A stretch of 63,644 nucleotides of DNA, counting the filler. It is 6 parts of 6 records of this genome, joined end to end, with 100 filler letters (N's around TTAATTAATTAA, not from the genome) between each part and the next. Parts side by side here need not be neighbours in the genome. Positions count along the whole stretch, not along the records: positions 13,968 to 25,642 come from SRR20825019_1253; 5 more parts are not named here. One strand, 5' to 3'. The position numbers were made by a program, and so were the translations under genes. This document shows, piece after piece, positions 13,868-54,165 of this stretch. Position 1 is the stretch's first letter, and the number at the start of each line of letters is the position of its first letter. Below the pieces are notes generated by a model. That model saw nothing but the letters and a program-made list of their open reading frames with translations, did no database searches and was not told the DNA's origin.

Positions 13868-13967
13868 NNNNNNNNNNNNNNNNNNNNNNNNNNNNNNNNN
13901 NNNNNNNNNNNTTAATTAATTAANNNNNNNNNNNNNNNNNNNNNNNNNNNNNNNNNNNNNNNNNNNN
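13868..13967. other. Artificial contig linker
   Basis: N-run, TTAATTAATTAA (stops in all six frames), N-run; GC content jumps across it. Confidence 0.98.
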
Positions 13968-15051
13968 CGGCGCCGCCGAAAACAGCGAACCAGAAGATGG
14001 AAAAGGCGGTCGGGATCAGGATGACGCCCATGCAGAATTCGCGGATCGTTCGCCCGCGCGAGATGCGCGCGATGAACACGCCGACAAATGGCCCCCAGGC
14101 CAGCCACCAGATCAGATAGGTCAGCGTCCAGTTTGCCGACCACTCCGTCAGGCCCTCGAACGGGAAAAGGCGGAACGACATGCTGACGAACTGCGACACA
14201 TAGGCGCCGATGGTCGTCACGAATGTTTCCATGATGAAGGCGGTCGGCCCGAAAATCAGGATGAAGGCCATCAGTGCAAGGCCGAGCACCATGTTGATGT
14301 CGGAGAGCAGTTTCATGCCTTTCTCGACGCCTGTGAGCGTCGAAATCATGTACATGGCAAACAGGACGGCCAGGACCGCCAGCGAAACGGCATTGATGGC
14401 GGGAAAATCAAAAAGCGCCGTCAGGCCCGAGCGCACCTGAAGTGCGCCCATCGCCAGAGAGCCTGCAAGGCCGAAGACCACGGCAACAACGCCAAGAACA
14501 TCGGCGGTGGTCGCCGCGACATCGGATGAGCGGCCGGAAAAAAGACTGCGCAGCGGTGTCGAGATCAGCGGTGGCTTGTCCAGCCGGAAGGTGAAATAGG
14601 CAATGACGAGGGCGCAGACGCCGTAGATCGACCAGGCGTGCAAACCCCAGTGCAGGTTGGTGATCACCATGGCCTGCCGCGCGGCTTCCGCCGATGCGGG
14701 CGTGCCGACGGGCGGATTTTCAAAATGCGTCACCGGTTCGGCAACGCCCCAGAACAACAGGCCGGCGCCCATGCCGCCGGCAAACAACATGGCGATCCAC
14801 GAGGAATAGGAAAATTCCGGCTTTTCATCATCCTTGCCCAGACGAATGGAGCCGTAAGGGCCAAATGCCAGAAACGCGGCCAGAAGCACAAAGCTCGAGC
14901 ACAGCCCCAGCCACCACCAGCTCGCCCCGACCATGAAATAGCTGGTGAAGCCCAGAACGCTTGCAGCCATCTGATCGGGGGCAATCACGCCCCATGCGCC
15001 AATCGGCAGGCAAAGGAGGAGCGAAATGACGACGACTCTGTTGATCTGCAC
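13968..15051 (-). CDS. BCCT (betaine/carnitine/choline) transporter, 3'-truncated by contig end
   Basis: SWIAMLFAGGMGAGLLFWGVAEP, HWGLHAW, WWLAWGPFVGVFIARISRGRTIREF; GTG start at 15051 inferred. Confidence 0.92.
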
Positions 15052-15167
15052 GATTGAACTGACCCCGTTTTTATACTGCTTTCGAGCCCGGAGGCTCCGC
15101 ACAACCATCCCAGGGTTGCCCAACATGTTTGTCGGTCGATGTCAACGAATGCGCGCGAAAAGTGACG

Positions 15168-15778
15168 TCAGAGGCATTGCGCGTTAAGGTGGAGCGCGTC
15201 CTCCAGGAACGGGTCGCGCGCCGTGCTGCGCATGTCCAGTTCCCGATGTTCGGGGAGGTTGTCCGGATCGAGGCCGGCGGCGGCGAGGGACGGCCGCAGG
15301 AAATTCGCGTGAACCCCGGAAATGTTCTTCGTATACAGCACGTCGGCGGCGCTTGAAGCCACCATCCTCTGCTTTTGCGCATCGCTCGCCATGGCTTCGT
15401 CCGTGGCCATGAACCGCGTGCCCATATAGGCGAAAACCGCTCCCATCATCCGTGCCGTAGCGACGTCGCGGCCGTGGCTGATCGCGCCTGCGAGCGCGAC
15501 GATGCCGTCGAAGAATGACCGGATCTCATTGACCAGCGCGAACGGGCTCATCAGTCCGCCATGCCCTCCGGCCCCGGCCGCAACCGCCACGATCCCGTCC
15601 ACCCCGGCCTCCGCCGCCTTTTCGGCGTGGCGGGTCCGGATCACGTCATGCAGTATGATCCCGCCATAGGTCGCCGCATGCCCGGCGACGGCCCGGCGCT
15701 CCTCGATCACGTTGAGCCAGTCGGAAAACCCTTCGGTGGTCCTCTGGTTCAGCGCCGGAAACGTGCCGATGAGCGCTC
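15168..15778 (-). pseudogene. Nitronate monooxygenase (2-nitropropane dioxygenase) family remnant
   Basis: IGTFPALNQR joined almost directly to YGGIILHDV...AGAGGHGG...YMGTRF; N-terminus, an internal segment and the C-terminus appear missing. Confidence 0.7.
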
Positions 15779-15909
15779 ACTGTGTTCGCTCTTGGCGTAT
15801 GCCTGGAACCAATTTCTGTTCCGCCCCTGTTATACCAAGGCGCGAAGATGCTGACGTATCCCTGCCTTGAAGGAATTGCGAGTTTACCAATTGTCCTGGT
15901 GACTTGGTA

Positions 15910-17421
15910 TTACTCCCTCGCCATCCCCCTGATTTTCCGCAGCGCCTGCCACACCACAAGCGCGGCGATGGCGGCCAGCAGCGCGCCGCTGATCGGGCGG
16001 GTGACAAAGGCCGTGATGTCGCCGTGATTGGCGAGAAGTCCGTTACGGAAGTTGACCTCGATGATCGGCCCGAGCACCAGGCCGATAACGATCGGCGGCA
16101 TCGGGAAGCGGAAGCATGCAAGCACGAAGCCGATTACGCCGAGGATGACCGCCAGAACGATTTCGAACGGACTGTTGTTGACGGCATAGACCCCGGTGAC
16201 GCAGAGGATCGCGACGACAGGGGTCAGCACGGGATAGGGGATCGCAAGAATCTTCGGCAAAAGCCGTCTTGCGCCAAGACCGAGCACGGTGATCAGCGCG
16301 GCCGAAATCAGCAGCACGCCCAGAATGACGAGAAACAGGTCACCGTTCTGGATGATGAAGAACGGTCCGGGATCGATGCCCTGGATCAGAAGCGCGCCGA
16401 CCAGCACCGCCGTCACCGTGTCGCCGGGAATGCCGAGCGTCAGCAGCGGCACCAGCGCGCCCCCGGTGACCGCATTGTTGGAGACTTCGGAGGCCACCAG
16501 CCGTCGCGTATCCTCTTCGGTTTCCCGCGCGGCTTCGTCCAGCCTGTCATCGCCGCGACCGCGCCCGGTCATGCCATAGGCGATCCAGGAGGCGATGGTG
16601 GGGCCGGTACCGGGCAGGATGCCGATGAAGGTGCCGACGGCCGCGCTTTGCAGAACCACCCACCAGTTGCGGATCAACACCGGCACGAGGCCCGAGATGG
16701 GCGTGCTGCGCTGCGCCGGAAGCGCGCCTTCGCTGGCATGGCGGTCGATCTGGGTGAGGATCTCGGCGATCGCGAAGAAGGCGATCAGCGCCGGGATCAG
16801 CGGAATGCCGCCCTGCAGATCGGGCAGGCCGAAGGAAAACCGCGTGACGCCGCCAACCTGATCGATGCCGACCGTGCCGATCAGCATGCCGAACGCGGCC
16901 GCGATGATGCCCTTGATGATCGATCCGCCGGAGACGGCGGCCACGCACATCAGCCCGAACAGGCCGAGAGAGAAGTATTCGACGGAGGTGAATTTCAGCG
17001 CAAAGGTGGAAAGCTTCGGGGCCAGAAACAGCAAAACGATCAGAGACAGCAGGCCTCCGAGCGAGGAACTGACCGTGGAAATGCCGATGGCGTAGTCGGC
17101 AAGCCCGCGCCGGGCCAGCCGGTAGCCGGGAAGGGCCGTGGCGGCATTGCCGGGCGAGCCCGGCGTGTTGATCAGGATTGCCGGGATCGAACCCGCGTAA
17201 TAGCCGGCGGCATAGATACCGAGCAGCAGCGCCATGGCCGCATTGAAATCGAGGCCGAAGGTGAGCGGGGTCGCGATCGCAACGCCGGTCGTGGCCGTCA
17301 ACCCCGGCGAGGCGCCGAAGATGAAGCCGACGATCACCCCGATCAGACACCACAGCAGGACGTCCGGGGCGAACAGCGCCTCGGCGGCGGCAGCGAACAT
17401 CGAGGCCGGAATCATATCCAT
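15910..17421 (-). CDS. tctA: Tripartite tricarboxylate transporter large permease TctA
   Basis: AILINTPG.P, E..NNA..GGALVPLLTLGIPG, GLVLGP.IE.NFR. Confidence 0.92.
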   Translation of the reverse strand: MDMIPASMFAAAAEALFAPDVLLWCLIGVIVGFIFGASPGLTATTGVAIATPLTFGLDFNAAMALLLGIYAAGYYAGSIPAILINTPGSPGNAATALPGYRLARRGLADYAIGISTVSSSLGGLLSLIVLLFLAPKLSTFALKFTSVEYFSLGLFGLMCVAAVSGGSIIKGIIAAAFGMLIGTVGIDQVGGVTRFSFGLPDLQGGIPLIPALIAFFAIAEILTQIDRHASEGALPAQRSTPISGLVPVLIRNWWVVLQSAAVGTFIGILPGTGPTIASWIAYGMTGRGRGDDRLDEAARETEEDTRRLVASEVSNNAVTGGALVPLLTLGIPGDTVTAVLVGALLIQGIDPGPFFIIQNGDLFLVILGVLLISAALITVLGLGARRLLPKILAIPYPVLTPVVAILCVTGVYAVNNSPFEIVLAVILGVIGFVLACFRFPMPPIVIGLVLGPIIEVNFRNGLLANHGDITAFVTRPISGALLAAIAALVVWQALRKIRGMARE

Positions 17422-17846
17422 GTCGGTACCAGAACGGTAAAGCCGTAGCGGAAGATCACAAAGACGGTGAGCGCGACCGCGACGGGCAGGATCGCGAGCA
17501 TGAGCGATCTGCGCTCGCCGAGCAACGCCATGCTGGCCAGCATGAAGGCCCAGGCGCCCAGGCGGAAATCGATATGGCGGAAGCTCAGCGCATAGATCGC
17601 CAGCAGCGCGATGAAGGCCAGTGCATGGCGGTTGAGGATCGGCCCAAGCGCGATCTCAAGCGCGGCCGAAGAGGGGCGAATCATCAACAACGCGCTGCCC
17701 GCGCCGATGATGACGCAGAGCGCCATCGGCAGGGTGCGGGCATTGACCGCGCCGCTTCCTGGCAGCACGTCGATGCCGGTGGCGAAATAGAGCATGACGA
17801 GCGAAAACAGCAATATGGCGCCGCCGATAGCGCGGTCTGCATGCAT
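17412..17846 (-). CDS. tctB: Tripartite tricarboxylate transporter small permease TctB
   Basis: About four TM helices, located between tctC and tctA. Confidence 0.8.
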   Translation of the reverse strand: MHADRAIGGAILLFSLVMLYFATGIDVLPGSGAVNARTLPMALCVIIGAGSALLMIRPSSAALEIALGPILNRHALAFIALLAIYALSFRHIDFRLGAWAFMLASMALLGERRSLMLAILPVAVALTVFVIFRYGFTVLVPTWI

Positions 17847-17906
17847 GAAAGGTCTCCGGATGAAGAGGCAAGCGGGCGCCGTTGCCCGCCGGCGACACGG
17901 CAAATC

Positions 17907-18866
17907 CTACCTGGCAAGGCCAAGTTCGGTGAGAACCTTCCGGTTCTGGGCGCTCGATGCCTCGATCACCGCGGCAAAACCGGCGGAATCCTTGAAGGCA
18001 TCGGTGTAGCTGAACTTGGCGTAGAGTTCGGCAAGCTCGTCGGATGCGGCGATTTCCTTCAGCGCCGCGTCAAGCCTGGCAATCACGTCATCCGGCACGC
18101 CCTTGCGGGTCACGAGGCCGAACCAGACGCTGGAGGTGAAGTCGAAACCCTGTTCCTTGAAGGTCCTGGCGCCCGGCAGGTAGTCGACCTCTTCATCGGC
18201 GGCAAGGCCAATGACCTTGAGCTGGCCAGCCTGCGCCAGCGACTTGTAGACCGGTGCGCCGACGAAGGAGAAGTCGACCTCGCCCGATAGCGCCTTCGTA
18301 ACCGCGCCCTTGCCGCCCTGACCGCTGATATGGGTCAGTGCAATGCCCTGCTGATCGGCAAAATCCGACATGCTGACATGCTGGCTGGAACCGGGGCCGG
18401 GGGTGGAGAAGGTGACGTCTTCGGATTTGGCCTTTTCGACGATATCCGAGATCGAATTGAGCGGGCTGTCGGCCGCCACCGCTACCGCGATCGGGGTTTC
18501 GACCAGTTCTGCGAGCGGAATGAAATCACTGGTTTCGTAACCGGCCTCCGCCATGATCGGGCGGGCGGTCAGGGCGCCGGTCGAGGCGATCAGCAGGGTG
18601 TAGCCGTCGGCCGGCGCCTTGGCGGCTTCCAGCGTGCCGACACTGCCGCCGGCGCCATCGACATTGCGCACGATGAAGGGTTTGCCGAAATAATTCTGAA
18701 GCTGCCTGGCAATGACGCGTGCTGTGCCGTCGATCGCATCACCGGCCCCGAAGGGAACGATGATCTGGACAGGCTTTTCGGGATATTCCGCGCGGGCCGC
18801 CGCCGGGGCCAGCATGAGGGCTGCGAGCGCGCCGAGCGCGAACTGTTTTGTCCTGGAAAAATTCAT
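17907..18866 (-). CDS. tctC: Tripartite tricarboxylate transporter substrate-binding protein (TctC/Bug)
   Basis: Signal peptide, YPEKPV.IIVPFGAG, GAGG..G, APADGYTL. Confidence 0.92.
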   Translation of the reverse strand: MNFSRTKQFALGALAALMLAPAAARAEYPEKPVQIIVPFGAGDAIDGTARVIARQLQNYFGKPFIVRNVDGAGGSVGTLEAAKAPADGYTLLIASTGALTARPIMAEAGYETSDFIPLAELVETPIAVAVAADSPLNSISDIVEKAKSEDVTFSTPGPGSSQHVSMSDFADQQGIALTHISGQGGKGAVTKALSGEVDFSFVGAPVYKSLAQAGQLKVIGLAADEEVDYLPGARTFKEQGFDFTSSVWFGLVTRKGVPDDVIARLDAALKEIAASDELAELYAKFSYTDAFKDSAGFAAVIEASSAQNRKVLTELGLAR

Positions 18867-18933
18867 GTCATGTTCCCTTCTATCTGATTATTGCGGGGCG
18901 TTTGCTTGTTTTTTGAACAGTGCCCCGTATAGT

Positions 18934-18947
18934 GCAGTATATACAAC
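18934..18947. promoter_or_regulatory. Imperfect HutC-type operator between divergent tctC and hutC
   Basis: GCAGTATATACAAC shares the GTATATACAA core with the perfect site at 19808. Confidence 0.65.
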
Positions 18948-18972
18948 ACCAGGATGGGGTCAACGAATTCAC

Positions 18973-19737
18973 ATGCAGAATCCGCCACTGCCGCGCTACG
19001 AGGCCTTGAAGGGCTTCATTTGCGGAAAGATCGACAACGGCGAATGGAAGCCGGATGACCGGATCCCCTCCGAAACAGTGCTTGCCGAAGATTTCGGCGT
19101 CTCGCGGATGACGGCAAACCGGGCAATAAGGGAGCTGACCGCCGAGGGCCGGCTGATGCGCATCGCCGGCGTCGGGACCTTTGTGCTTGCGCCCAAGGTG
19201 CGCGGCACAATCCTTGAAATCCGCAGTATTTCCGATGAAATCGCAGCACGCGGCCACACCCATAGCAGCCGGCTGATCTATCTGGGCAAGATCAGGGCGA
19301 CGAGCCGTATCGCCGGCGTTCTGGAAGTGGCAGAGGGGACGCTGGTCTTCAACGTCGTCATCGTGCACATGGAAAACGGCGAGCCGGTGCAGCTTGAGAC
19401 CCGCTACGTCAATCCGCTGGCGGCGCCCGATTTTCTCGAACTCGATTTCTCCGCGCGGACGCCGAGTGATTATCTGCTTGGTCGTTTGCCGGTCGCCGAG
19501 ATCGAACAGACCATCGAGGCCCGACTGCCGACGCCGGACGAAGCAGAGCATCTGCATATGGATCTCTCGGAGCCGTGCCTGGTGCTGGATCGGCGGTCGC
19601 GCTCCGGTCGGCTGGTGGTGACCTATGTAAAGCTGGTGCATCCCGGCCGGCGGGTGACGCTCGGCGGCCTCACGGTCGGCGGTGCGCAGGATTCACCGAT
19701 GGCAGGCGAGGCCGCGTTTGGCGAGAGTGCGGTTTAA
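18973..19737 (+). CDS. hutC: GntR/HutC-subfamily repressor (HTH + UTRA)
   Basis: IPSE..LAEDFGVSRMTANRA, GVGTFV, I.DEIAARGH.H, HMENGEPVQLETRYVN. Confidence 0.9.
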   Translation: MQNPPLPRYEALKGFICGKIDNGEWKPDDRIPSETVLAEDFGVSRMTANRAIRELTAEGRLMRIAGVGTFVLAPKVRGTILEIRSISDEIAARGHTHSSRLIYLGKIRATSRIAGVLEVAEGTLVFNVVIVHMENGEPVQLETRYVNPLAAPDFLELDFSARTPSDYLLGRLPVAEIEQTIEARLPTPDEAEHLHMDLSEPCLVLDRRSRSGRLVVTYVKLVHPGRRVTLGGLTVGGAQDSPMAGEAAFGESAV

Positions 19738-19807
19738 CAGGCCATCCGCGCCCTGCTGAATTTACGGTCAATGCTATTTTTTGCCTTGCGAATGGGCAAT
19801 TCGCATG

Positions 19808-19821
19808 CTTGTATATACAAG
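19808..19821. promoter_or_regulatory. HutC operator, perfect palindrome CTTGTATATACAAG
   Basis: Matches the known HutC TGTA-N2-TACA consensus; lies 50 bp upstream of the lyase gene. Confidence 0.85.
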
Positions 19822-19870
19822 TACAGACATTCAAAAGCGCCGTCGGGCGCTTCGATCGAAGGGTACGTCC

Positions 19871-21373
19871 TTGAAAGCGCAGGCTCCCGTCATTCTCAGC
19901 GCCAACCCGCCCGGCCTTGCCGAAATCGTGCGCATCGCCCGTCACGGCGCTCCGGTCAAGATCGCCGGTGAGCTGACGGCGCTGCTGGAGAAGAGCCGCG
20001 CGGTGATCGAGCGGCAGCTTGCGGACAATGCGCCGGTTTACGGGCTCACCACCGGGCTTGGCGCGGGCGTCGACACGAGGCTCGAAACCTCCGACATTGT
20101 CGCCTTCCAGCAGCGCGTGCCGGAAGCGCGCGCGGTCGGGGTTGGTTCCGGTCTTTCCCGTGAGGTCGTGCGTGCGGTCATGGCCGCGCGGCTGGCGGGC
20201 TTTGCCTCGGGCGGGGCAGGGGTTTCGCCGGGGGTCGCGGCATCGCTTGCCGCAGCCCTCAATGCCGGTTTCCATCCGGTGATCCGCGCTCTCGGCTCGA
20301 TCGGCGCCGCCGACCTCGCGCCGCTTTCCGACATGGCGCGCGGGCTGTTGGGCCACGGCGAGGTGGAATTCGGCGGCGAGATCATGGATGCAGGCAAGGC
20401 GCTTGAAAAAGCCGGACTGGCGTCATTGACGCTCGGACCGCGCGACGGCCACGCGCTGGTGGTTGGCAACAGCCTGTCGATCGGCCAGGCCTGCCTTGCA
20501 GTCGATGATCTGGCCCGCACGCTCGACTGGTCTGTTGCAGCCCTTGCGCTGAACTTCGAAGCGTTTCGCGCCAATGTCACCGTCATCGACCCGCGCGCGC
20601 TGTCGCGCCGCCCGGCGTTCGGGCAGGAGGCTGCCGGCAGGAGACTTGCGGATATGCTCGCGGGAAGCGGCCTTTTCGAACCGGACGCGGCCAGGCGGCT
20701 GCAGGATCCGGTCAGCTATCGCTGCGCGCCGCAGATCTGGGGCGCGCTCATTCATGCACTGGAAGAGGCGACGGTGGCGGCCGAAATAGAGATCGCCGGC
20801 GCCGGTGACAATCCGGTGGTGCTTGTCGAAGACAACGCGCTGATCCACAACGGCAATTTCGATACAACGGCCTTCGCGCTCTCCTTCGAGCGCCTCGGCC
20901 TTGCGATCGCCCAGTGCGCCTCGGCAACCGCCCATCGGACCATGAAGATCATGTCGCCCGGGATTTCCGAACTGCCGCGTTTCCTGACGCCGAGAGGCGC
21001 AAGCCGCACCGGGTTTGCCACGGTGCAGAAGACGGTTTCTGCGCTGGAGGCGGAGATCCGCCATCTTGCCAATCCGGTGGCGTTTTCGCCGATCCCGGTT
21101 GCGGACGGCATCGAGGATCACGCGTCGATGGCGCCTTCGGTGATGGCCAAGACCGCCGCGATCATCGAGCGCTTCCGCTATCTCGTCGCCATCGAACTGA
21201 TCGCCGCAAGCCAGGCGGTCGAACTGCGCGGCGTCGAAAGCCTCGGCGCTGGCGCTTCCGCCGCATACGCCAAGGTGCGCTCAATCGTCGAGCCGCTCGA
21301 TGAAGACCGCGCCCAGGCGCCCGATTTTTCCAGAATGTCCGATTTCATCCGGGTGAACGCGCCCGGCTCATGA
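19871..21373 (+). CDS. HAL/PAL-family aromatic amino acid lyase lacking the Ala-Ser-Gly MIO motif (ergothionase-like)
   Basis: VYGLTTGLGA, GSIGAADLAPL, LQDPVSYRCAPQ, DNP, NGNF, GIEDH; TTG start inferred from RBS. Confidence 0.85.
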   Translation: MKAQAPVILSANPPGLAEIVRIARHGAPVKIAGELTALLEKSRAVIERQLADNAPVYGLTTGLGAGVDTRLETSDIVAFQQRVPEARAVGVGSGLSREVVRAVMAARLAGFASGGAGVSPGVAASLAAALNAGFHPVIRALGSIGAADLAPLSDMARGLLGHGEVEFGGEIMDAGKALEKAGLASLTLGPRDGHALVVGNSLSIGQACLAVDDLARTLDWSVAALALNFEAFRANVTVIDPRALSRRPAFGQEAAGRRLADMLAGSGLFEPDAARRLQDPVSYRCAPQIWGALIHALEEATVAAEIEIAGAGDNPVVLVEDNALIHNGNFDTTAFALSFERLGLAIAQCASATAHRTMKIMSPGISELPRFLTPRGASRTGFATVQKTVSALEAEIRHLANPVAFSPIPVADGIEDHASMAPSVMAKTAAIIERFRYLVAIELIAASQAVELRGVESLGAGASAAYAKVRSIVEPLDEDRAQAPDFSRMSDFIRVNAPGS

Positions 21374-21437
21374 AGTCCAATAACAAGGGTCGTAAAGACC
21401 TCCCAAAACCTCCAACCCCGATATCAGAGGGAATGAC

Positions 21438-22319
21438 ATGAAATTCGCATCCATCCTCGCCGCTGCCCTGATCGCCGCAGCGGCGGCAGCGCCCGCCAAG
21501 GCCGATCCGATCCAGGTCGGCTCCAAGAACTTCACCGAGCAGTATATTCTCGGCGAAATGTATGCCGCGCTGCTGGAAAACGCCGGCTATGAGGTCGATC
21601 GCAAGATCAATCTCGGCGGCACGCTGATCGCCCATCAGGCGCTGACCACCGGCGAGATCGACCTCTATCCGGAATATACCGGCACGGCGCTCAGCGCTGT
21701 CGTCAAGGGCGAAATCTCCTCGGACCCCGACGCCGTTTACGCCACGGTGAAGGATTATTACGCCGGAGAACTCGGCCTCGTCTGGCTGGAGCCGACCGGC
21801 ATCAACAACGGCTATGCCATCGTCGTGCGCCAGGATACCGCCGATGAATACAAGCTTGCCACGCTTTCCGATCTCGCCGCAGCCGCCGGCGACCTCATCA
21901 TGGGCGGCGGGCCCGAATTTCCCGACCGCGCCGACGGCCTGCCGGGCCTGAAGGATGTTTACGGTATCGAATTCAAGGAATTCAAGCAGTTCGCCAAGCT
22001 CGGCCTGCGCTACGACGCGCTGCTGCAGGGCGATATCGACGTGGCCAACGGCTATGCCACCGACTGGCAGATCGGCGCCGAGGGTCTTGTACCCCTCGAT
22101 GACGACAAGGGCCTGTTCCCGCCCTATTACGTCGCCCCGGTCGTGCGCGCCGAGGTGCTCGAGGCCAATCCGGGCATGGCCGAGGTGCTGAACGCGCTGG
22201 CACCGCATGTCGACAACGCCGTGATGCGCAAGCTCAACGCCGAAGTCGAACAGAACCGCGAAGAACCCGAGGACGTCGCCAAGGCGTATCTCGAGGAAAT
22301 CGGCCTTATCAACAATTGA
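21438..22319 (+). CDS. Quaternary-amine ABC substrate-binding protein (OpuCC/OsmX/YehZ/EgtU-like)
   Basis: Signal peptide, VGSKNFTEQ, LGGT, DLYPEYTGT, DDDKGLFPPY. Confidence 0.9.
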   Translation: MKFASILAAALIAAAAAAPAKADPIQVGSKNFTEQYILGEMYAALLENAGYEVDRKINLGGTLIAHQALTTGEIDLYPEYTGTALSAVVKGEISSDPDAVYATVKDYYAGELGLVWLEPTGINNGYAIVVRQDTADEYKLATLSDLAAAAGDLIMGGGPEFPDRADGLPGLKDVYGIEFKEFKQFAKLGLRYDALLQGDIDVANGYATDWQIGAEGLVPLDDDKGLFPPYYVAPVVRAEVLEANPGMAEVLNALAPHVDNAVMRKLNAEVEQNREEPEDVAKAYLEEIGLINN

Positions 22320-22374
22320 GGCCCGCCGGCCGGGCCTTGTGCCCGGCCCTTCTCTATCTTGCCGGAGCGATAAA

Positions 22375-23379
22375 ATGCAGGAAATCTGGATCGACTACCT
22401 CAACGCGATCGACGCCAAGGCGCTGTCGCTCACCGATGACGAGATCTTGTCCGCCGTCGAAAGGGCGCTTGCCGACCAGGGCCGCGGCGAAACCGTGATC
22501 GAGCCGCGCGTGCATCTGGTGCCGGAAAGCTCCGACAAGGGGCATTTCAATGTGCTGCGCGGCTATGTGAAGTCGCTTGGCTTTGCCGGCGTCAAGGTGG
22601 TCGGCGATTTCGTCGACAACTACAAGCACGGCCTTCCCTCCGAACTCGCCGTGCTCAACCTGTTCGATCCCGAGACCGGCATTCCCAAAGCCGTGATCGA
22701 TGCGACCGCGATTACCGACATGCGCACCGGCGCCGTCACCGCGCTCGGCGCCAAGTATCTGGCGCGAAAGGACAGCAAGATCCTTGGCCATGTCGGCGCG
22801 CGCGGCACCTCCTACTGGAATGTCCGCCTGCTCAATCATCTCTTCGATTTCGATGAGATCCGCGTCCATTCCCGACGCCCGGAAAGCCGGAATGCCTTCG
22901 CGGAACGGCTGGAACGCGACCTCGGCAAGAAAATCATCGTCACCGACAACTGGCAGGACTGCCTGGACGGCGCGGACATCATGATCGAGGCGAGCCGTCT
23001 GCCGGAACCGACGCCGCTGTTCAAGACCGAATGGGTCAGGAAGGGCGCGTTCGTGGTGCCGTACGGCACCATGAGCGCGCTCGAATTCGACCTCACCGAC
23101 ATCATGGACAAGGTGGTCGTCGACGACTGGGGCCAGTGCGGGCCGGGCCGGCCTTACGGCGCGCTGCGCCGCCATGTCGACGAAGGCAAGGTGACGGCGG
23201 AAAACCTTCATGCCGAGATCGGCCAGATCGTCTGTGGCGCAAAGCCCGGTCGCGAGAGCGAGGACGAAACCATCCTGTTCTGGCATCGAGGCCTTTCCAC
23301 CACCGATGTCGCGCTTGGCGCGGCGATGGTGGAAAAGGCGAGGACGCTCGGCATCGGCCAGCGCCTGCGCTTTGCCTGA
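22375..23379 (+). CDS. Ornithine cyclodeaminase / mu-crystallin family protein
   Basis: GVKVV, ITDMRTGAVTA, GHVGARG, GRE...E.ILFWHRGL...DVA. Confidence 0.88.
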   Translation: MQEIWIDYLNAIDAKALSLTDDEILSAVERALADQGRGETVIEPRVHLVPESSDKGHFNVLRGYVKSLGFAGVKVVGDFVDNYKHGLPSELAVLNLFDPETGIPKAVIDATAITDMRTGAVTALGAKYLARKDSKILGHVGARGTSYWNVRLLNHLFDFDEIRVHSRRPESRNAFAERLERDLGKKIIVTDNWQDCLDGADIMIEASRLPEPTPLFKTEWVRKGAFVVPYGTMSALEFDLTDIMDKVVVDDWGQCGPGRPYGALRRHVDEGKVTAENLHAEIGQIVCGAKPGRESEDETILFWHRGLSTTDVALGAAMVEKARTLGIGQRLRFA

Positions 23380-23388
23380 GGACGCCTG

Positions 23389-24183
23389 ATGGGCCTGATC
23401 GCCAACACACGGATGTATAATCTGACGCCGCCGATCCGCGCGCGGTTCGACGCGCTGGTCATGGCGGCGTCGGAAGCATCCGGCGTCGCGCTCGATGTGA
23501 TCGCCCACGAGGCCCCCAGGCCGCTCGGGGATCTCTGGAGCCGCGACGATATGGGCATGGTGTTCATGTGTTCCTATCCCTATGCGCAGCGCATGCCCCC
23601 GGCGCGGCCGCAGCCGCTGGCGGCCCCGGTTTCCACCGCCGATTGGGCGGCGGGCCGGCCGGTCTATGCAAGCCGGATCGTGGTGCGCGCCGACGATCCG
23701 CCGGCGGACCTCGGCAAGGCCCGATGGGTCTGGACGGTGCGGGATTCGCAATCCGGCTATAACGCCGCGCGCGAGTTTCTCGCCGGCCTCGACCTCAAGG
23801 GCGAGGTCGAAACGGTGGGCCCGGTGGTCACGCCCGCCGGCGTCATGGAGGCCGTGCGTTCCGGCAAGGCCGATGCCGGGGCCGTCGATGCCTATGCCTG
23901 GCAGCTTCTGGAAATGCACGCGCCGGAGATGATCGCCGACCTTGCGGTTGCCGCGACCACGGCGCCTGCGCCATTCCCGATGCTGGTCGCCGCCGCCGCC
24001 GCGCCTAAGGAAAGCATCGAGAAGCTGCGGGGAGCCTTGCTCGCGCTCCATGAAACCGAAGGCGGAAGGGCGGTGCTCGTCTCGCTCGGGCTTTCCCGCT
24101 TCGCCATGCCGGATCTTGCCGCGGTCGAGGCCTTGACCGGGCGCGCCCGCGAGACCGACGCCCGTCTTGGCGCGCGATGGTGA
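23389..24183 (+). CDS. PhnD/SsuA/transferrin-fold protein without signal peptide
   Basis: N-terminal ANTRMYN, CSYPY, Y.SRIVVRAD, SQSGYNA, GKADAGAVD. Confidence 0.75.
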   Translation: MGLIANTRMYNLTPPIRARFDALVMAASEASGVALDVIAHEAPRPLGDLWSRDDMGMVFMCSYPYAQRMPPARPQPLAAPVSTADWAAGRPVYASRIVVRADDPPADLGKARWVWTVRDSQSGYNAAREFLAGLDLKGEVETVGPVVTPAGVMEAVRSGKADAGAVDAYAWQLLEMHAPEMIADLAVAATTAPAPFPMLVAAAAAPKESIEKLRGALLALHETEGGRAVLVSLGLSRFAMPDLAAVEALTGRARETDARLGARW

Positions 24184-24247
24184 CGCAATCTTTCTGCGCA
24201 GCAAGGGCGCGCGGCCCGGCTGCATCGATCAACAAAGGAGGCTGCCG

Positions 24248-24877
24248 ATGAAATGGCTGCCAGGACATCTCGACGACGTGGGGGAGGCGCTGTTGCAGCA
24301 TCTCTATCTCGTGGTCGTCTCGGTCGGCATCGCGCTTGCGATCTCGCTGGTGATCGGCATCTGGTCGGCGCACCGACCGAAGACCTTCAACGCAGCGCTG
24401 ATGATCACCGGCGTGCTGTTCGCGATCCCGAGTCTTGCGCTGTTCGCGCTGTTCATTCCGGTGCTCGGCATCGGCGCGGCACCCGCAATCACCGGGCTCT
24501 CGCTCTATTCGCTGATGATCCTGATCCGCAATATCGGCCTCGGTTTCCAGTCGATCCCCGCCGACGTCATGGAAGCGGCTCACGGCATGGGCTATGGCTC
24601 TTTCCGCAGGCTTTGGGAAGTCGAATTGCCGATCGCGCTGCCCTTCATCGTCGGCGGCATCCGGATCGCGACCGTCACCGTGATCGGCATCGCCACAGTG
24701 GCTGCCTACATCAATGCCGGCGGGCTTGGCGCGATCATCTTCCAGGGCATCGACCAGCGCTTTCCCGAAAAGATCATCGTCGGCGGGCTGCTGACTTCGG
24801 CACTCGCGCTTTCGGCGGATTACGCGTTGTCGGCGCTTGAAACCCGGTTGCGGCGCAGAAGCGGGAGGCCCGCATGA
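24248..24877 (+). CDS. Osmoprotectant-type ABC permease
   Basis: IPSLAL, EAAHGMG, VELPIALP.I..GIR, AGGLG. Confidence 0.9.
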   Translation: MKWLPGHLDDVGEALLQHLYLVVVSVGIALAISLVIGIWSAHRPKTFNAALMITGVLFAIPSLALFALFIPVLGIGAAPAITGLSLYSLMILIRNIGLGFQSIPADVMEAAHGMGYGSFRRLWEVELPIALPFIVGGIRIATVTVIGIATVAAYINAGGLGAIIFQGIDQRFPEKIIVGGLLTSALALSADYALSALETRLRRRSGRPA

Positions 24878-25509
24878 TCGTTATCGAAGCCTTTCAGTGG
24901 ATCGCCGAAAACCAGTCGGCCTTCTTTTCCGCCTTCGACCGGCATCTCCTCCTGTGTTTCGTCTCGCTCGCCATCGCGCTTGGCATCTCGCTGCCGCTCG
25001 GCTTCAAGGTTGCCCATTCGCCGCGCGCGGCCTTTGCCGCGATCAATGTCGCCGGTTCGCTGCGGTCGATCCCGAGCCTCGCCATTCTCGCCGCCGCCAT
25101 GCCGCTGCTCGGCATCGGGCTGTGGCCCTCGGTGGTGGCGCTGGTGGTGCTGGCCGTGCCGCCGCTGCTGCTCAACACCGTGATCGGAATTCGCGAAATC
25201 GACAGCGCCATTCTCGACGCCGCGACCGGCATGGGCATGGGCCGGCGCGACATACTGTGGCAGATCGAGATTCCGCTTGCCGTCCCCTCGATCATTGCCG
25301 GGGTGCGCACCAGCGCAATCCAGGTGATTGGCGGGGCGGCGCTCGCCTCCTTCATCGGCGGCGGCGGGTTGGGCGATTTCATCAACGCCGGCATTGCGCT
25401 GATGAACATGCCGCGCCTGCTTGTCGGCGCACTTCCGATCGCGGCGCTCGCGATCTTTGCCGAACTGTTCTTCGGCTGGCTCGAACGCCGCCTCACCAAC
25501 AGACGCTGA
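24874..25509 (+). CDS. Osmoprotectant-type ABC permease
   Basis: IPSLA, DAATGMGM, IEIPLAVP.IIAGVR, GGGGLG. Confidence 0.9.
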   Translation: MIVIEAFQWIAENQSAFFSAFDRHLLLCFVSLAIALGISLPLGFKVAHSPRAAFAAINVAGSLRSIPSLAILAAAMPLLGIGLWPSVVALVVLAVPPLLLNTVIGIREIDSAILDAATGMGMGRRDILWQIEIPLAVPSIIAGVRTSAIQVIGGAALASFIGGGGLGDFINAGIALMNMPRLLVGALPIAALAIFAELFFGWLERRLTNRR

Positions 25510-25525
25510 CCGCAAGGGCCGAACC

Positions 25526-25642
25526 ATGATTACCATCGAACACGTTTCCAAGAACTACGACGACGGCGGCCATCTTGCGGTCGACAATCTCGATCTCACC
25601 ATCGAGACCGGAACCACCGTGGCGCTGATCGGCCCGTCGGGC
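25526..25642 (+). CDS. ABC ATP-binding subunit (5' fragment)
   Basis: MITIEHVSKNY...LIGPSG, runs into linker. Confidence 0.85.
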
Positions 25643-25742
25643 NNNNNNNNNNNNNNNNNNNNNNNNNNNNNNNNNNNNNNNNNNNNTTAATTAATTAANN
25701 NNNNNNNNNNNNNNNNNNNNNNNNNNNNNNNNNNNNNNNNNN
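25643..25742. other. Artificial contig linker
   Basis: N-TTAATTAATTAA-N. Confidence 0.98.
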
Positions 25743-34879: not shown

Positions 34880-34979
34880 NNNNNNNNNNNNNNNNNNNNN
34901 NNNNNNNNNNNNNNNNNNNNNNNTTAATTAATTAANNNNNNNNNNNNNNNNNNNNNNNNNNNNNNNNNNNNNNNNNNNN
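34880..34979. other. Artificial contig linker
   Basis: N-TTAATTAATTAA-N. Confidence 0.98.
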
Positions 34980-40988: not shown

Positions 40989-41088
40989 NNNNNNNNNNNN
41001 NNNNNNNNNNNNNNNNNNNNNNNNNNNNNNNNTTAATTAATTAANNNNNNNNNNNNNNNNNNNNNNNNNNNNNNNNNNNNNNNNNNNN
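40989..41088. other. Artificial contig linker
   Basis: N-TTAATTAATTAA-N. Confidence 0.98.
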
Positions 41089-54065: not shown

Positions 54066-54165
54066 NNNNNNNNNNNNNNNNNNNNNNNNNNNNNNNNNNN
54101 NNNNNNNNNTTAATTAATTAANNNNNNNNNNNNNNNNNNNNNNNNNNNNNNNNNNNNNNNNNNNN
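54066..54165. other. Artificial contig linker
   Basis: N-TTAATTAATTAA-N. Confidence 0.98.

Follow-up and report, generated by a model that had tools for sequence, protein, structure and literature searches.

A cofactor-less ergothionase relative with arginine at position 87, labeled as histidine ammonia-lyase, and its conserved gene neighborhood

We analyzed a gene for a 500-residue lyase in a 63,644-base stretch of DNA (the window; Table 1). Public records for its Martelella homologue and for some Rhizobium plasmids carry the label hutH or histidine ammonia-lyase (HAL); other records use the generic 'HAL/PAL/TAL family ammonia-lyase'. The encoded enzyme is a cofactor-less relative of ergothionase, not the HAL of the label. 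Because it cannot make the 4-methylideneimidazole-5-one (MIO) cofactor, metabolic reconstructions that read the gene as hutH misassign histidine use. The enzyme is very probably an MIO-independent trimethylammonia-lyase, from which trimethylamine would be released. An Arg at position 87 (Arg87), together with the genes that accompany the lyase, supports a substrate class different from that of ergothionase. With moderate confidence, we favor an anionic histidine betaine substituted at C2, probably ergothioneine sulfonate or sulfinate, as the compound that is carried to urocanate.

Cofactor-less trimethylammonia-lyases are under active charting, and each of two recent preprints adds one new substrate (Bertsova et al., 2025, 2026). 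These preprints state that the family lacks the Ala-Ser-Gly triad, that a Tyr takes the beta-proton, that Gln, Arg, and Asn bind the carboxylate, and that a His and a Glu bind N-tau and N-pi of the imidazole. They also describe Lys384 (Treponema denticola numbering) as the thiolate binder of ergothioneine and call it essential; Swoo_3913, a hercynine lyase, has Asn in its place, and SO_3299, which acts on N-pi-methyl-hercynine, has Gln. The His at the position that is 87 in our sequence is given as the N-tau ligand of both HAL and ergothionase in the 2025 preprint.

Motif and active-site residues of the lyase

The initial annotation had described a motif GSIG-AA-DLAPL that is one residue short and has no Ser, in a protein that keeps the Tyr loop and the QD..S.RC.PQ, DNP, and GNF motifs. 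Our translation agrees: in the product, P0001, VYGLTTG occupies residues 56-62, QDPVSYRCAPQ residues 278-288, GDNP residues 312-315, and GNFD residues 328-331. Alignment with the Pseudomonas putida HAL leaves a one-residue gap at the motif ('gsigaa.dlapl' versus 'GSVGASgDLAPL'), whereas alignment with the T. denticola ergothionase is gapless ('SSIGEGDITTL').

A 3-bp assembly error at the motif, which the initial annotation had raised, is ruled out, since the shorter motif is present in all 16 aligned relatives (GSIG[A/T/E]ADL; 60 to 92% identity). For the wider family, a HMMER search returned 8,453 proteins at an E value of ≤0.001; from the best 150, which were listed, we dropped 13 that were shorter than 430 amino acids and kept 137 full-length representatives. 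The one-residue-shorter motif was found in 104 of these; the remainder were 29 with ASG or SSG, 3 with a three-residue deletion, and 1 gapped. The shortening characterizes the lineage and is due neither to chance nor to an assembly error. A Logan contig from run X1 (11,690 nucleotides [nt]; depth, 112) covers the gene from end to end, with no difference and no gap, but it may be the source of the window and so not independent. The contig from run X2 matches 19871-20307 without difference and ends inside the motif; neither it nor the contig from run X3 covers the whole motif. Each of the three runs, which belong to one study, also has a second, deeper contig (depths of 153, 23, and 65) that matches only the 33 bases 20293-20325, with 3 differences. 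Presumably these contigs stem from another organism of the same samples and encode its homologous lyase.

The lyase matches PF00221 over the full length of the profile (435 bits, positions 3-465 of 466). Its score to the hutH equivalog TIGR01225 is 374.1 bits, under the cutoff of 539.15, and the true hutH of a related genome (L168:5718-7538) scores 729 bits. None of the lyases scanned matched an ergothionase-specific NCBIfam model. The best relative in the PDB is the T. denticola ergothionase 6s7j (2.1e-77, 264 bits), followed by the Thermoplasma HAL and the P. putida HAL (217 bits). An AlphaFold model (mean predicted local distance difference test [pLDDT], 80; predicted template modeling score, 0.86) also retrieved 6s7j first in a structural search (template modeling [TM] score, 0.84; ∼30% identity), with HALs close behind, likewise at 0.84.

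Seven residues are invariant in the alignment with the 16 clade relatives: Tyr57, Gln278, Arg284, Asn314, Glu415, Lys387, and Arg87. Lys387 lies in VQKT, aligned with IQKT of ergothionase, where HAL has QVT. Thus far the protein resembles ergothionase in having the HAL fold, a motif of the same length without Ala-Ser-Gly, and the counterparts of the catalytic Tyr, the carboxylate-binding Gln, Arg, and Asn, the N-pi-binding Glu, and the thiolate-binding Lys. It differs in having Arg87 in place of the N-tau-binding His and NFD (residues 329-331) in place of NFE, in its low identity, and in belonging to another clade. To judge by these residues, it has what a MIO-less trimethylammonia-lyase would need, namely no Ala-Ser-Gly and a conserved catalytic Tyr with its carboxylate binders; of the two marks of an ergothionase proper it has the Lys at the 384 position and lacks the His. 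The initial annotation had called the protein HutH-like, MIO-less, and of the trimethylammonia type, and the higher score to 6s7j than to HAL, the hutH score below cutoff, and the retention of Lys387 all point the same way.

Compared with HutH (TIGR01225; P. putida 1gkm/1b8f), the fold is shared (TM score, 0.84), as are the Tyr, Asn, Gln, Arg, Phe, and Glu substrate-binding positions. The Ala-Ser-Gly triad, and with it MIO, is absent, and in the alignment with the P. putida enzyme His83 of HAL has become Arg87 and Tyr280 has become Val281. We take both HAL residues to be important for its activity and Tyr280 to be tied to MIO chemistry. The hutH labels and the overall fold are what would speak for a true HAL, as annotated, or for a catalytically dead paralogue. 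We consider either extremely unlikely: there is no Ser for MIO, the equivalog score is below cutoff, both HAL residues are replaced, and genomes that bear the cluster have a true ASG-type hutH elsewhere, such as the 729-bit gene above; a dead paralogue would not fit the strong conservation of the active-site residues across more than 10 genera.

Clade structure and gene company of the Arg87 lyases

We tabulated the active-site positions in 210 sequences, made up of the 137 representatives and the lyases of the related loci described below. Among the representatives with the one-residue-shorter motif, 53 have Arg87/Lys387, 19 have His87/Lys387, and 12 have His87/Tyr387. The ASG and SSG forms have His87 in 28 of 29 cases (the other has Asn) and Tyr or Val at position 387. 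Arg87 is present in 63 of the 64 focal lyases, and every ergothionase-type representative examined has His87. A FastTree phylogeny of 177 sequences, an analysis called for in the initial annotation, sets the clade of our lyase apart from the His87/Lys387 clade; among the rows listed, the sole exception within the Arg87/Lys387 clade was one His87 sequence (L050). The T. denticola ergothionase belongs to the His87/Lys387 clade, because P0230, a member of that clade with NFE, scores 422 bits to 6s7j, versus 264 bits for our lyase.

The initial annotation had suggested that the Ala-Ala variant may mark a different substrate class. The different class gains support from Arg87, from the gene neighborhood, and from coexistence with an ergothioneine (ert) cluster; Ala-Ala as its marker does not stand. 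The pair occurs in 10 Arg87 and in 4 His87 representatives with the one-residue-shorter motif, and within the clade of our lyase the same position also reads EA, VA, AD, ES, AS, QA, MA, CA, and AG. We therefore rejected the pair as a class marker, since it is common to both groups and variable within one. Judged from the alignments, the distinguishing change is His to Arg at position 87. Residues 87 (His or Arg) and 387 (Lys, Asn, Gln, or Tyr) together sort the examined sequences into groups with different gene company, and they give a practical guide to choosing lyases for assay.

A second MIO-less HAL homologue, with the motif 'GS(V/A)GY---L', appeared in the same survey (L007:517-2067, minus strand; L168:11089-12579, plus strand; also in L011 and L077). 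It is three residues under the ASG length, has His87/Tyr387, lies near true HALs, and scores just below the hutH cutoff (507 and 469 bits). Next to one copy are genes for an OpuAC binding protein and an ABC importer of its own. This form is possibly a hercynine-type lyase.

To describe the gene company, we collected 80 related loci from one-genome-per-species contigs and searched them by tblastn with the window's proteins. They come from Rhizobium, Hoeflea, Aminobacter, Bosea, Methylobacterium, Inquilinus, Ancylobacter, Azospirillum, Dongia, and metagenome-assembled genomes (MAGs) of Burkholderiales. A gene of the ornithine cyclodeaminase (OCD)/mu-crystallin family is present in 66 of the 80 loci, a gene for a PhnD-like protein in 61, and both in 59; other thresholds gave 65 and 62. 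The OCD-like gene is missing from 14 loci, 9 of which are less than 14 kb long. The OpuAC gene was found in 44 loci, a permease gene in 46, and a HutC-like gene in 31. Within the Rhizobiales, the OCD-like protein is more conserved (83 to 90% identity) than the lyase (62 to 68%). Plasmid pMM593 of Martelella mediterranea has the nearest relative, a lyase 92% identical to ours in a shared eight-gene unit annotated as hutC, hutH, a glycine betaine substrate-binding protein, an ornithine cyclodeaminase family protein, a PhnD/SsuA/transferrin substrate-binding protein, two permeases, and an ATPase. The Rhizobium rhizogenes homologues P0070 and P0071 (cluster L007) are 64% identical to our lyase.

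The control set consisted of 80 metagenome loci, retrieved by means of an ergothionase-type lyase alignment. In these, the count for either the OCD-like or the PhnD-like gene was 0 of 80, versus 65 and 62 of the 80 related loci. The control lyases (n = 79) comprise 63 with His87/Lys387, 14 with His87/Asn387, 1 of the ASG type, and 1 partial sequence; His87 was scored in 77 of the 79, the other two being the ASG-type sequence, with His, and a gapped row.

The periplasmic OpuAC-type protein has as PDB relatives ProX and OpuBC/CC, which bind betaine, choline, and carnitine, and the ergothioneine-binding EgtUC (2e-48). The OCD-like protein falls under all NCBIfam equivalog cutoffs, and its relatives of known structure are NAD(P)-dependent alanine dehydrogenase and imine reductases. 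The PhnD-like protein has, on inspection of its N terminus, no signal peptide; its PDB relatives are AioX (Pbl/PtxB-like; 1.5e-16) and ArrX, binders of arsenite, phosphite, or arsenate oxyanions. TxxDSQSG is invariant in 13 PhnD-like sequences, and a protein-atlas search returned PF12974 clusters only. A predicted complex of the OCD-like and PhnD-like proteins, run without alignments or controls, scored 0.00, a value that speaks neither for nor against an interaction.

The regulator encoded upstream scores 264 bits to the HutC equivalog TIGR02018 (cutoff, 220), has the Pfam GntR and UTRA domains, and corresponds to hutC of pMM593. The perfect palindrome CTTGTATATACAAG between the regulator and the lyase gene occurs once in the window versus 0.02 times expected, and it fits what we take to be the HutC site consensus, TGTA-N2-TACA. 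In 29 of the 80 loci, the homologous operon is headed by a related palindrome (TGTATATACA, ≤2 mismatches). In Hoeflea the related palindrome is just upstream of the lyase gene, and in the Rhizobium-type loci it is at the operon head. In L005-L008 and relatives, the palindrome CCTGTATATACAGG lies ∼45 nt upstream of a coenzyme A (CoA)-transferase gene (e.g., at L005:5979), and behind it the operon runs CoA-transferase, short-chain dehydrogenase/reductase (SDR), MaoC hydratase, HutC, lyase, substrate-binding protein, OCD, PhnD-like protein, and ABC transporter.

No urocanase-like gene is on the window's contig. A urocanase was found in all five cluster-bearing genomes searched, and one locus places the lyase directly with hut genes: L070, from a Burkholderiales MAG, reads hutU-hutD-hutI-hutF-OCD-TctC-PhnD-like-OpuAC-lyase-permeases-ATPase. 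Its urocanase, the sole urocanase gene among the 80 loci, is a true hutU (927 bits, below the cutoff for thiourocanate hydratase). Hut genes are also present in L071 and L075, so that the loci that carry them come from two Burkholderiales MAGs and one Rhodospirillaceae MAG. In Sinorhizobium meliloti, hutH2 presumably lies beside the HutXWV histidine/betaine transporter.

Proposed substrate and pathway, weighed against the alternatives

In the pathway that we favor, the OpuAC-type binding protein and the ABC transporter would import the betaine. In the cytoplasm, Tyr57 of the lyase would abstract the beta-proton, and trimethylamine would be lost in an E1cB-type elimination without MIO, as in ergothionase, to leave a 2-substituted urocanate. 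Lys387 and Arg87, the latter in place of the N-tau-binding His, would hold the anionic substituent at C2. The OCD-like protein, as an NAD(P)H-dependent reductase, would act with the PhnD-like protein to remove this substituent as sulfite and yield urocanate, which would relieve the HutC-type repressor at the upstream palindrome and enter the Hut pathway. An anionic sulfur-oxygen substituent is suggested by the combination of Arg87 with Lys387, a partner of oxyanion-binding fold, and a neighbor of family PF03601. A gene of the last family heads the cluster in 15 of the 80 loci. PF03601 is described as a family of putative sulfate exporters; one member, YeiH, is the main sulfite-resistance determinant in Salmonella.

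An ordinary ergothionase is the first alternative: the lyase would convert ergothioneine to thiourocanate and trimethylamine, and the OCD-like protein would remove the sulfur reductively, as sulfide, in an aerobic alternative to the five-step ert pathway. Lys387 is the hallmark of such an enzyme, no PDB entry matches better than ergothionase, EgtUC is about as close to the OpuAC protein as other betaine binders are, and ergothioneine is far commoner than its sulfonate. Four of the five genomes checked have no ert cluster, which also fits. We nonetheless regard an ordinary ergothionase as rather unlikely. Arg stands where all ergothionase-type sequences examined have His, the oxyanion-fold partner and the neighbor from a sulfite/sulfate exporter family suit sulfite better than sulfide, and R. 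rhizogenes has both this cluster and a full ert cluster.

That genome, R. rhizogenes OV677, encodes five PF00221 proteins: a true hutH beside hutU, a three-residue-deleted form near hut genes, a second such form with its own OpuAC/ABC importer, the Arg87 form with an OCD-like gene, and a divergent His87/Lys387 form (196 bits to hutH) inside a complete ert cluster (L167:7413-14926; G002 contig C3). All four downstream enzymes of the ert cluster exceed their NCBIfam cutoffs: thiourocanate hydratase with 1060 bits (cutoff, 930), thiohydantoin desulfurase with 608 (440), ErtD with 788 (600), and ErtE with 623 (520). The ErtA-type lyase of this cluster, which is of the Burkholderia type, resembles our lyase in being a MIO-less PF00221 protein with Lys at position 387 and shares its genome with a homologue of our lyase; the ErtA-type enzyme differs in having His87 and only 27% identity. 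The four enzymes that follow it accompany no lyase of the Arg87 clade. Thiohydantoin desulfurase was above its cutoff in one of the five cluster-bearing genomes searched. Because OV677 has both clusters and the other four genomes have no ert cluster, the Arg87 cluster is separate from ert, able to coexist with it and not dependent on it.

A hercynine (histidine betaine) trimethylammonia-lyase like Swoo_3913 would make urocanate directly. The HutC-type regulator, the hut linkage, and the betaine importer would agree with such an enzyme, and the known hercynine lyase is likewise MIO-less, according to the preprints. Swoo_3913 and SO_3299, both from Shewanella, are described there as trimethylammonia-lyases in which residues surrounding the imidazole determine specificity; they are periplasmic, coupled to a flavocytochrome reductase, and used in anaerobic respiration. 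Our lyase differs from them in being leaderless, in keeping the Lys where these lyases for sulfur-free substrates have Asn or Gln, in adding Arg87 as a second cationic residue, and in being part of an uptake and catabolic operon. Its N terminus, LKAQAPVILSANPPG, aligns with residue 3 of the ergothionase chain, so that by alignment, not by a predictor, no leader is apparent. If urocanate formed directly, moreover, there would be nothing for the strictly linked OCD-like and PhnD-like genes to do. A hercynine lyase is thus very unlikely.

Two findings raise the case of a betaine other than a C2-sulfur histidine derivative, such as another substituted hercynine, an anionic amino-acid betaine, or an aromatic betaine, e.g., hypaphorine. 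A fused CoA-transferase is encoded in 33 of the 80 loci and a MaoC hydratase in 35, often with an SDR alongside and behind the operon's own palindrome, in Rhizobium, Aminobacter, Bosea, Ancylobacter, Inquilinus, and Methylobacterium; the enoate from the lyase could be handled as a CoA thioester by these three enzymes. SO_3299 shows that unexpected substrates can occur in the family. Against such a betaine, the histidine-specific binders, Glu415 among them, do not vary, the regulator scores as a HutC equivalog, hut genes are linked in L070, L071, and L075, and neither the window nor Martelella, Hoeflea, or the Burkholderiales MAGs have the CoA trio. We think it quite unlikely.

Several points weigh against a C2-oxyanion betaine as the substrate. 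The hut linkage is confined to 3 of the 80 loci. The PF03601 linkage is restricted to one Rhizobium lineage, the 15 loci all being of the R. leguminosarum group. CoA-transferase, SDR, and MaoC hydratase, which share an operon and a palindrome with the lyase in the Rhizobium-type loci, have no role in the pathway. The control loci are mostly gut metagenomes from other phyla, and taxonomy may contribute to the count of 0 of 80. Finally, the model of the lyase has a pLDDT of <50 at residues 58-66, 84-90, 142-146, and 406-415, which include Arg87 and active-site loops; because of this, and because the active site forms in the tetramer, the geometry of Arg87 relative to C2 cannot be read from the model.

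An ergothioneine sulfonate catabolic pathway has reportedly been found in Agrobacterium radiobacter, in an article by Yan, Huang, and Zhang (ACS Catal. 2022, 12:4825) that is known here by its title and by its citation in a review. From that citation, it would be a route for oxidized ergothioneine with an ergothionase-type activity, and relatives of the species carry the cluster studied here (L007). The two may be the same, and the cluster already described; this is a guess from the citation. In the open full-text literature we found no description of the enzymes of the sulfonate pathway and no link between ergothioneine and the OCD family.

It is conceivable, and we propose it only tentatively, that an undescribed three-protein module is made up of the Arg87 lyase with the OCD-like and the leaderless PhnD-like proteins. 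It would take oxidized (sulfonated or sulfinated) ergothioneine to urocanate, first by elimination of trimethylamine and then by NAD(P)H-driven reductive removal of the C2 oxyanion. The PhnD fold would then serve as an intracellular sulfonate- or sulfite-binding partner, not as a transport receptor, and in rhizobia there would be a CoA-dependent branch. If oxidized ergothioneine is the substrate, root-associated and marine Alphaproteobacteria would recycle a spent fungal and actinobacterial antioxidant to glutamate, trimethylamine, and sulfite, and ergothioneine turnover would be tied to the methylamine and sulfur cycles of soil and sea.

The contig and its other features

The window consists of six contigs with GC contents of 32 to 67%, and neighboring pieces need not come from one organism. 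The contigs are joined by spacers of the form N44-TTAATTAATTAA-N44 at 13868-13967, 25643-25742, 34880-34979, 40989-41088, and 54066-54165. The contig with the lyase gene spans 13968-25642 (11,675 bases; ∼60 to 66% GC). The lyase frame, 19871-21373 on the plus strand, has 500 open codons and a TTG start that agrees with the Martelella homologue, P0002. A longer open reading frame (ORF) begins at 19781; this start is disfavored because the operator-like 14-bp palindrome would fall inside that ORF.

TABLE 1 Features of the lyase contig, in window coordinates
Feature	Position	Strand	Remarks
BCCT betaine/choline/carnitine transporter, truncated	13968..15126	-	PF02028, 427 bits; cut by contig end
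TctA, TctB, TctC tripartite carboxylate transporter genes	15910..18866	-	Divergent from the operon; Pfam
HutC-type GntR/UTRA regulator	18865..19737	+	ATG at 18865; start inferred from Martelella annotation
Perfect palindrome, candidate HutC-type operator	19808..19821		Between regulator and lyase genes
MIO-less HAL-fold lyase (P0001, 500 amino acids)	19871..21373	+	Putative trimethylammonia-lyase, Arg87/Lys387 subfamily
Arg87 codon	20129..20131	+	Aligned with imidazole N-tau-binding His (HAL His83; ergothionase His)
GSIGAADLAPL motif	20294..20326	+	Position of the MIO Ala-Ser-Gly; one residue shorter, without Ser
Lys387 codon	21029..21031	+	Equivalent of thiolate-binding Lys384 of T. denticola ergothionase
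OpuAC-type quaternary-amine binding protein	21438..22319	+	Periplasmic, signal peptide; PF04069, 240 bits
Ornithine cyclodeaminase/mu-crystallin-family (OCD-like) protein	22375..23379	+	PF02423
PhnD/AioX/PtxB-like oxyanion-binding-fold protein	23389..24183	+	Cytoplasmic; PF12974
ABC permease genes (two)	24167-24877, 24874-25509	+	PF00528, both
ABC ATPase gene, 5' end	25526..25642	+	ATG at 25526; tblastn to related loci; cut by contig end

At the left end of the contig, the BCCT gene is not conserved in the 80 related loci. An ORF similar to nitronate monooxygenase (15168-15710, minus strand; 180 amino acids) covers profile positions 146-262 of 331 and is probably a gene remnant. The divergent TctABC arrangement recurs in Hoeflea (L001) and Martelella, and in L070 a TctC gene is inside the module; the link of these genes to the operon is uncertain.

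Two further observations concern the related loci. On pMM593, an annotated aminoglycoside 3-N-acetyltransferase gene (L081:23253-24086) lies ∼0.7 kb downstream of the operon; we assume no functional link. In L063 and L071, which are of the Rhodospirillaceae type, the Arg87 lyases adjoin an MttB-family methyltransferase (693 bits) and proteins of the GFA and fatty-acid-desaturase families, neighbors that hint at local handling of methylamine or of another betaine.

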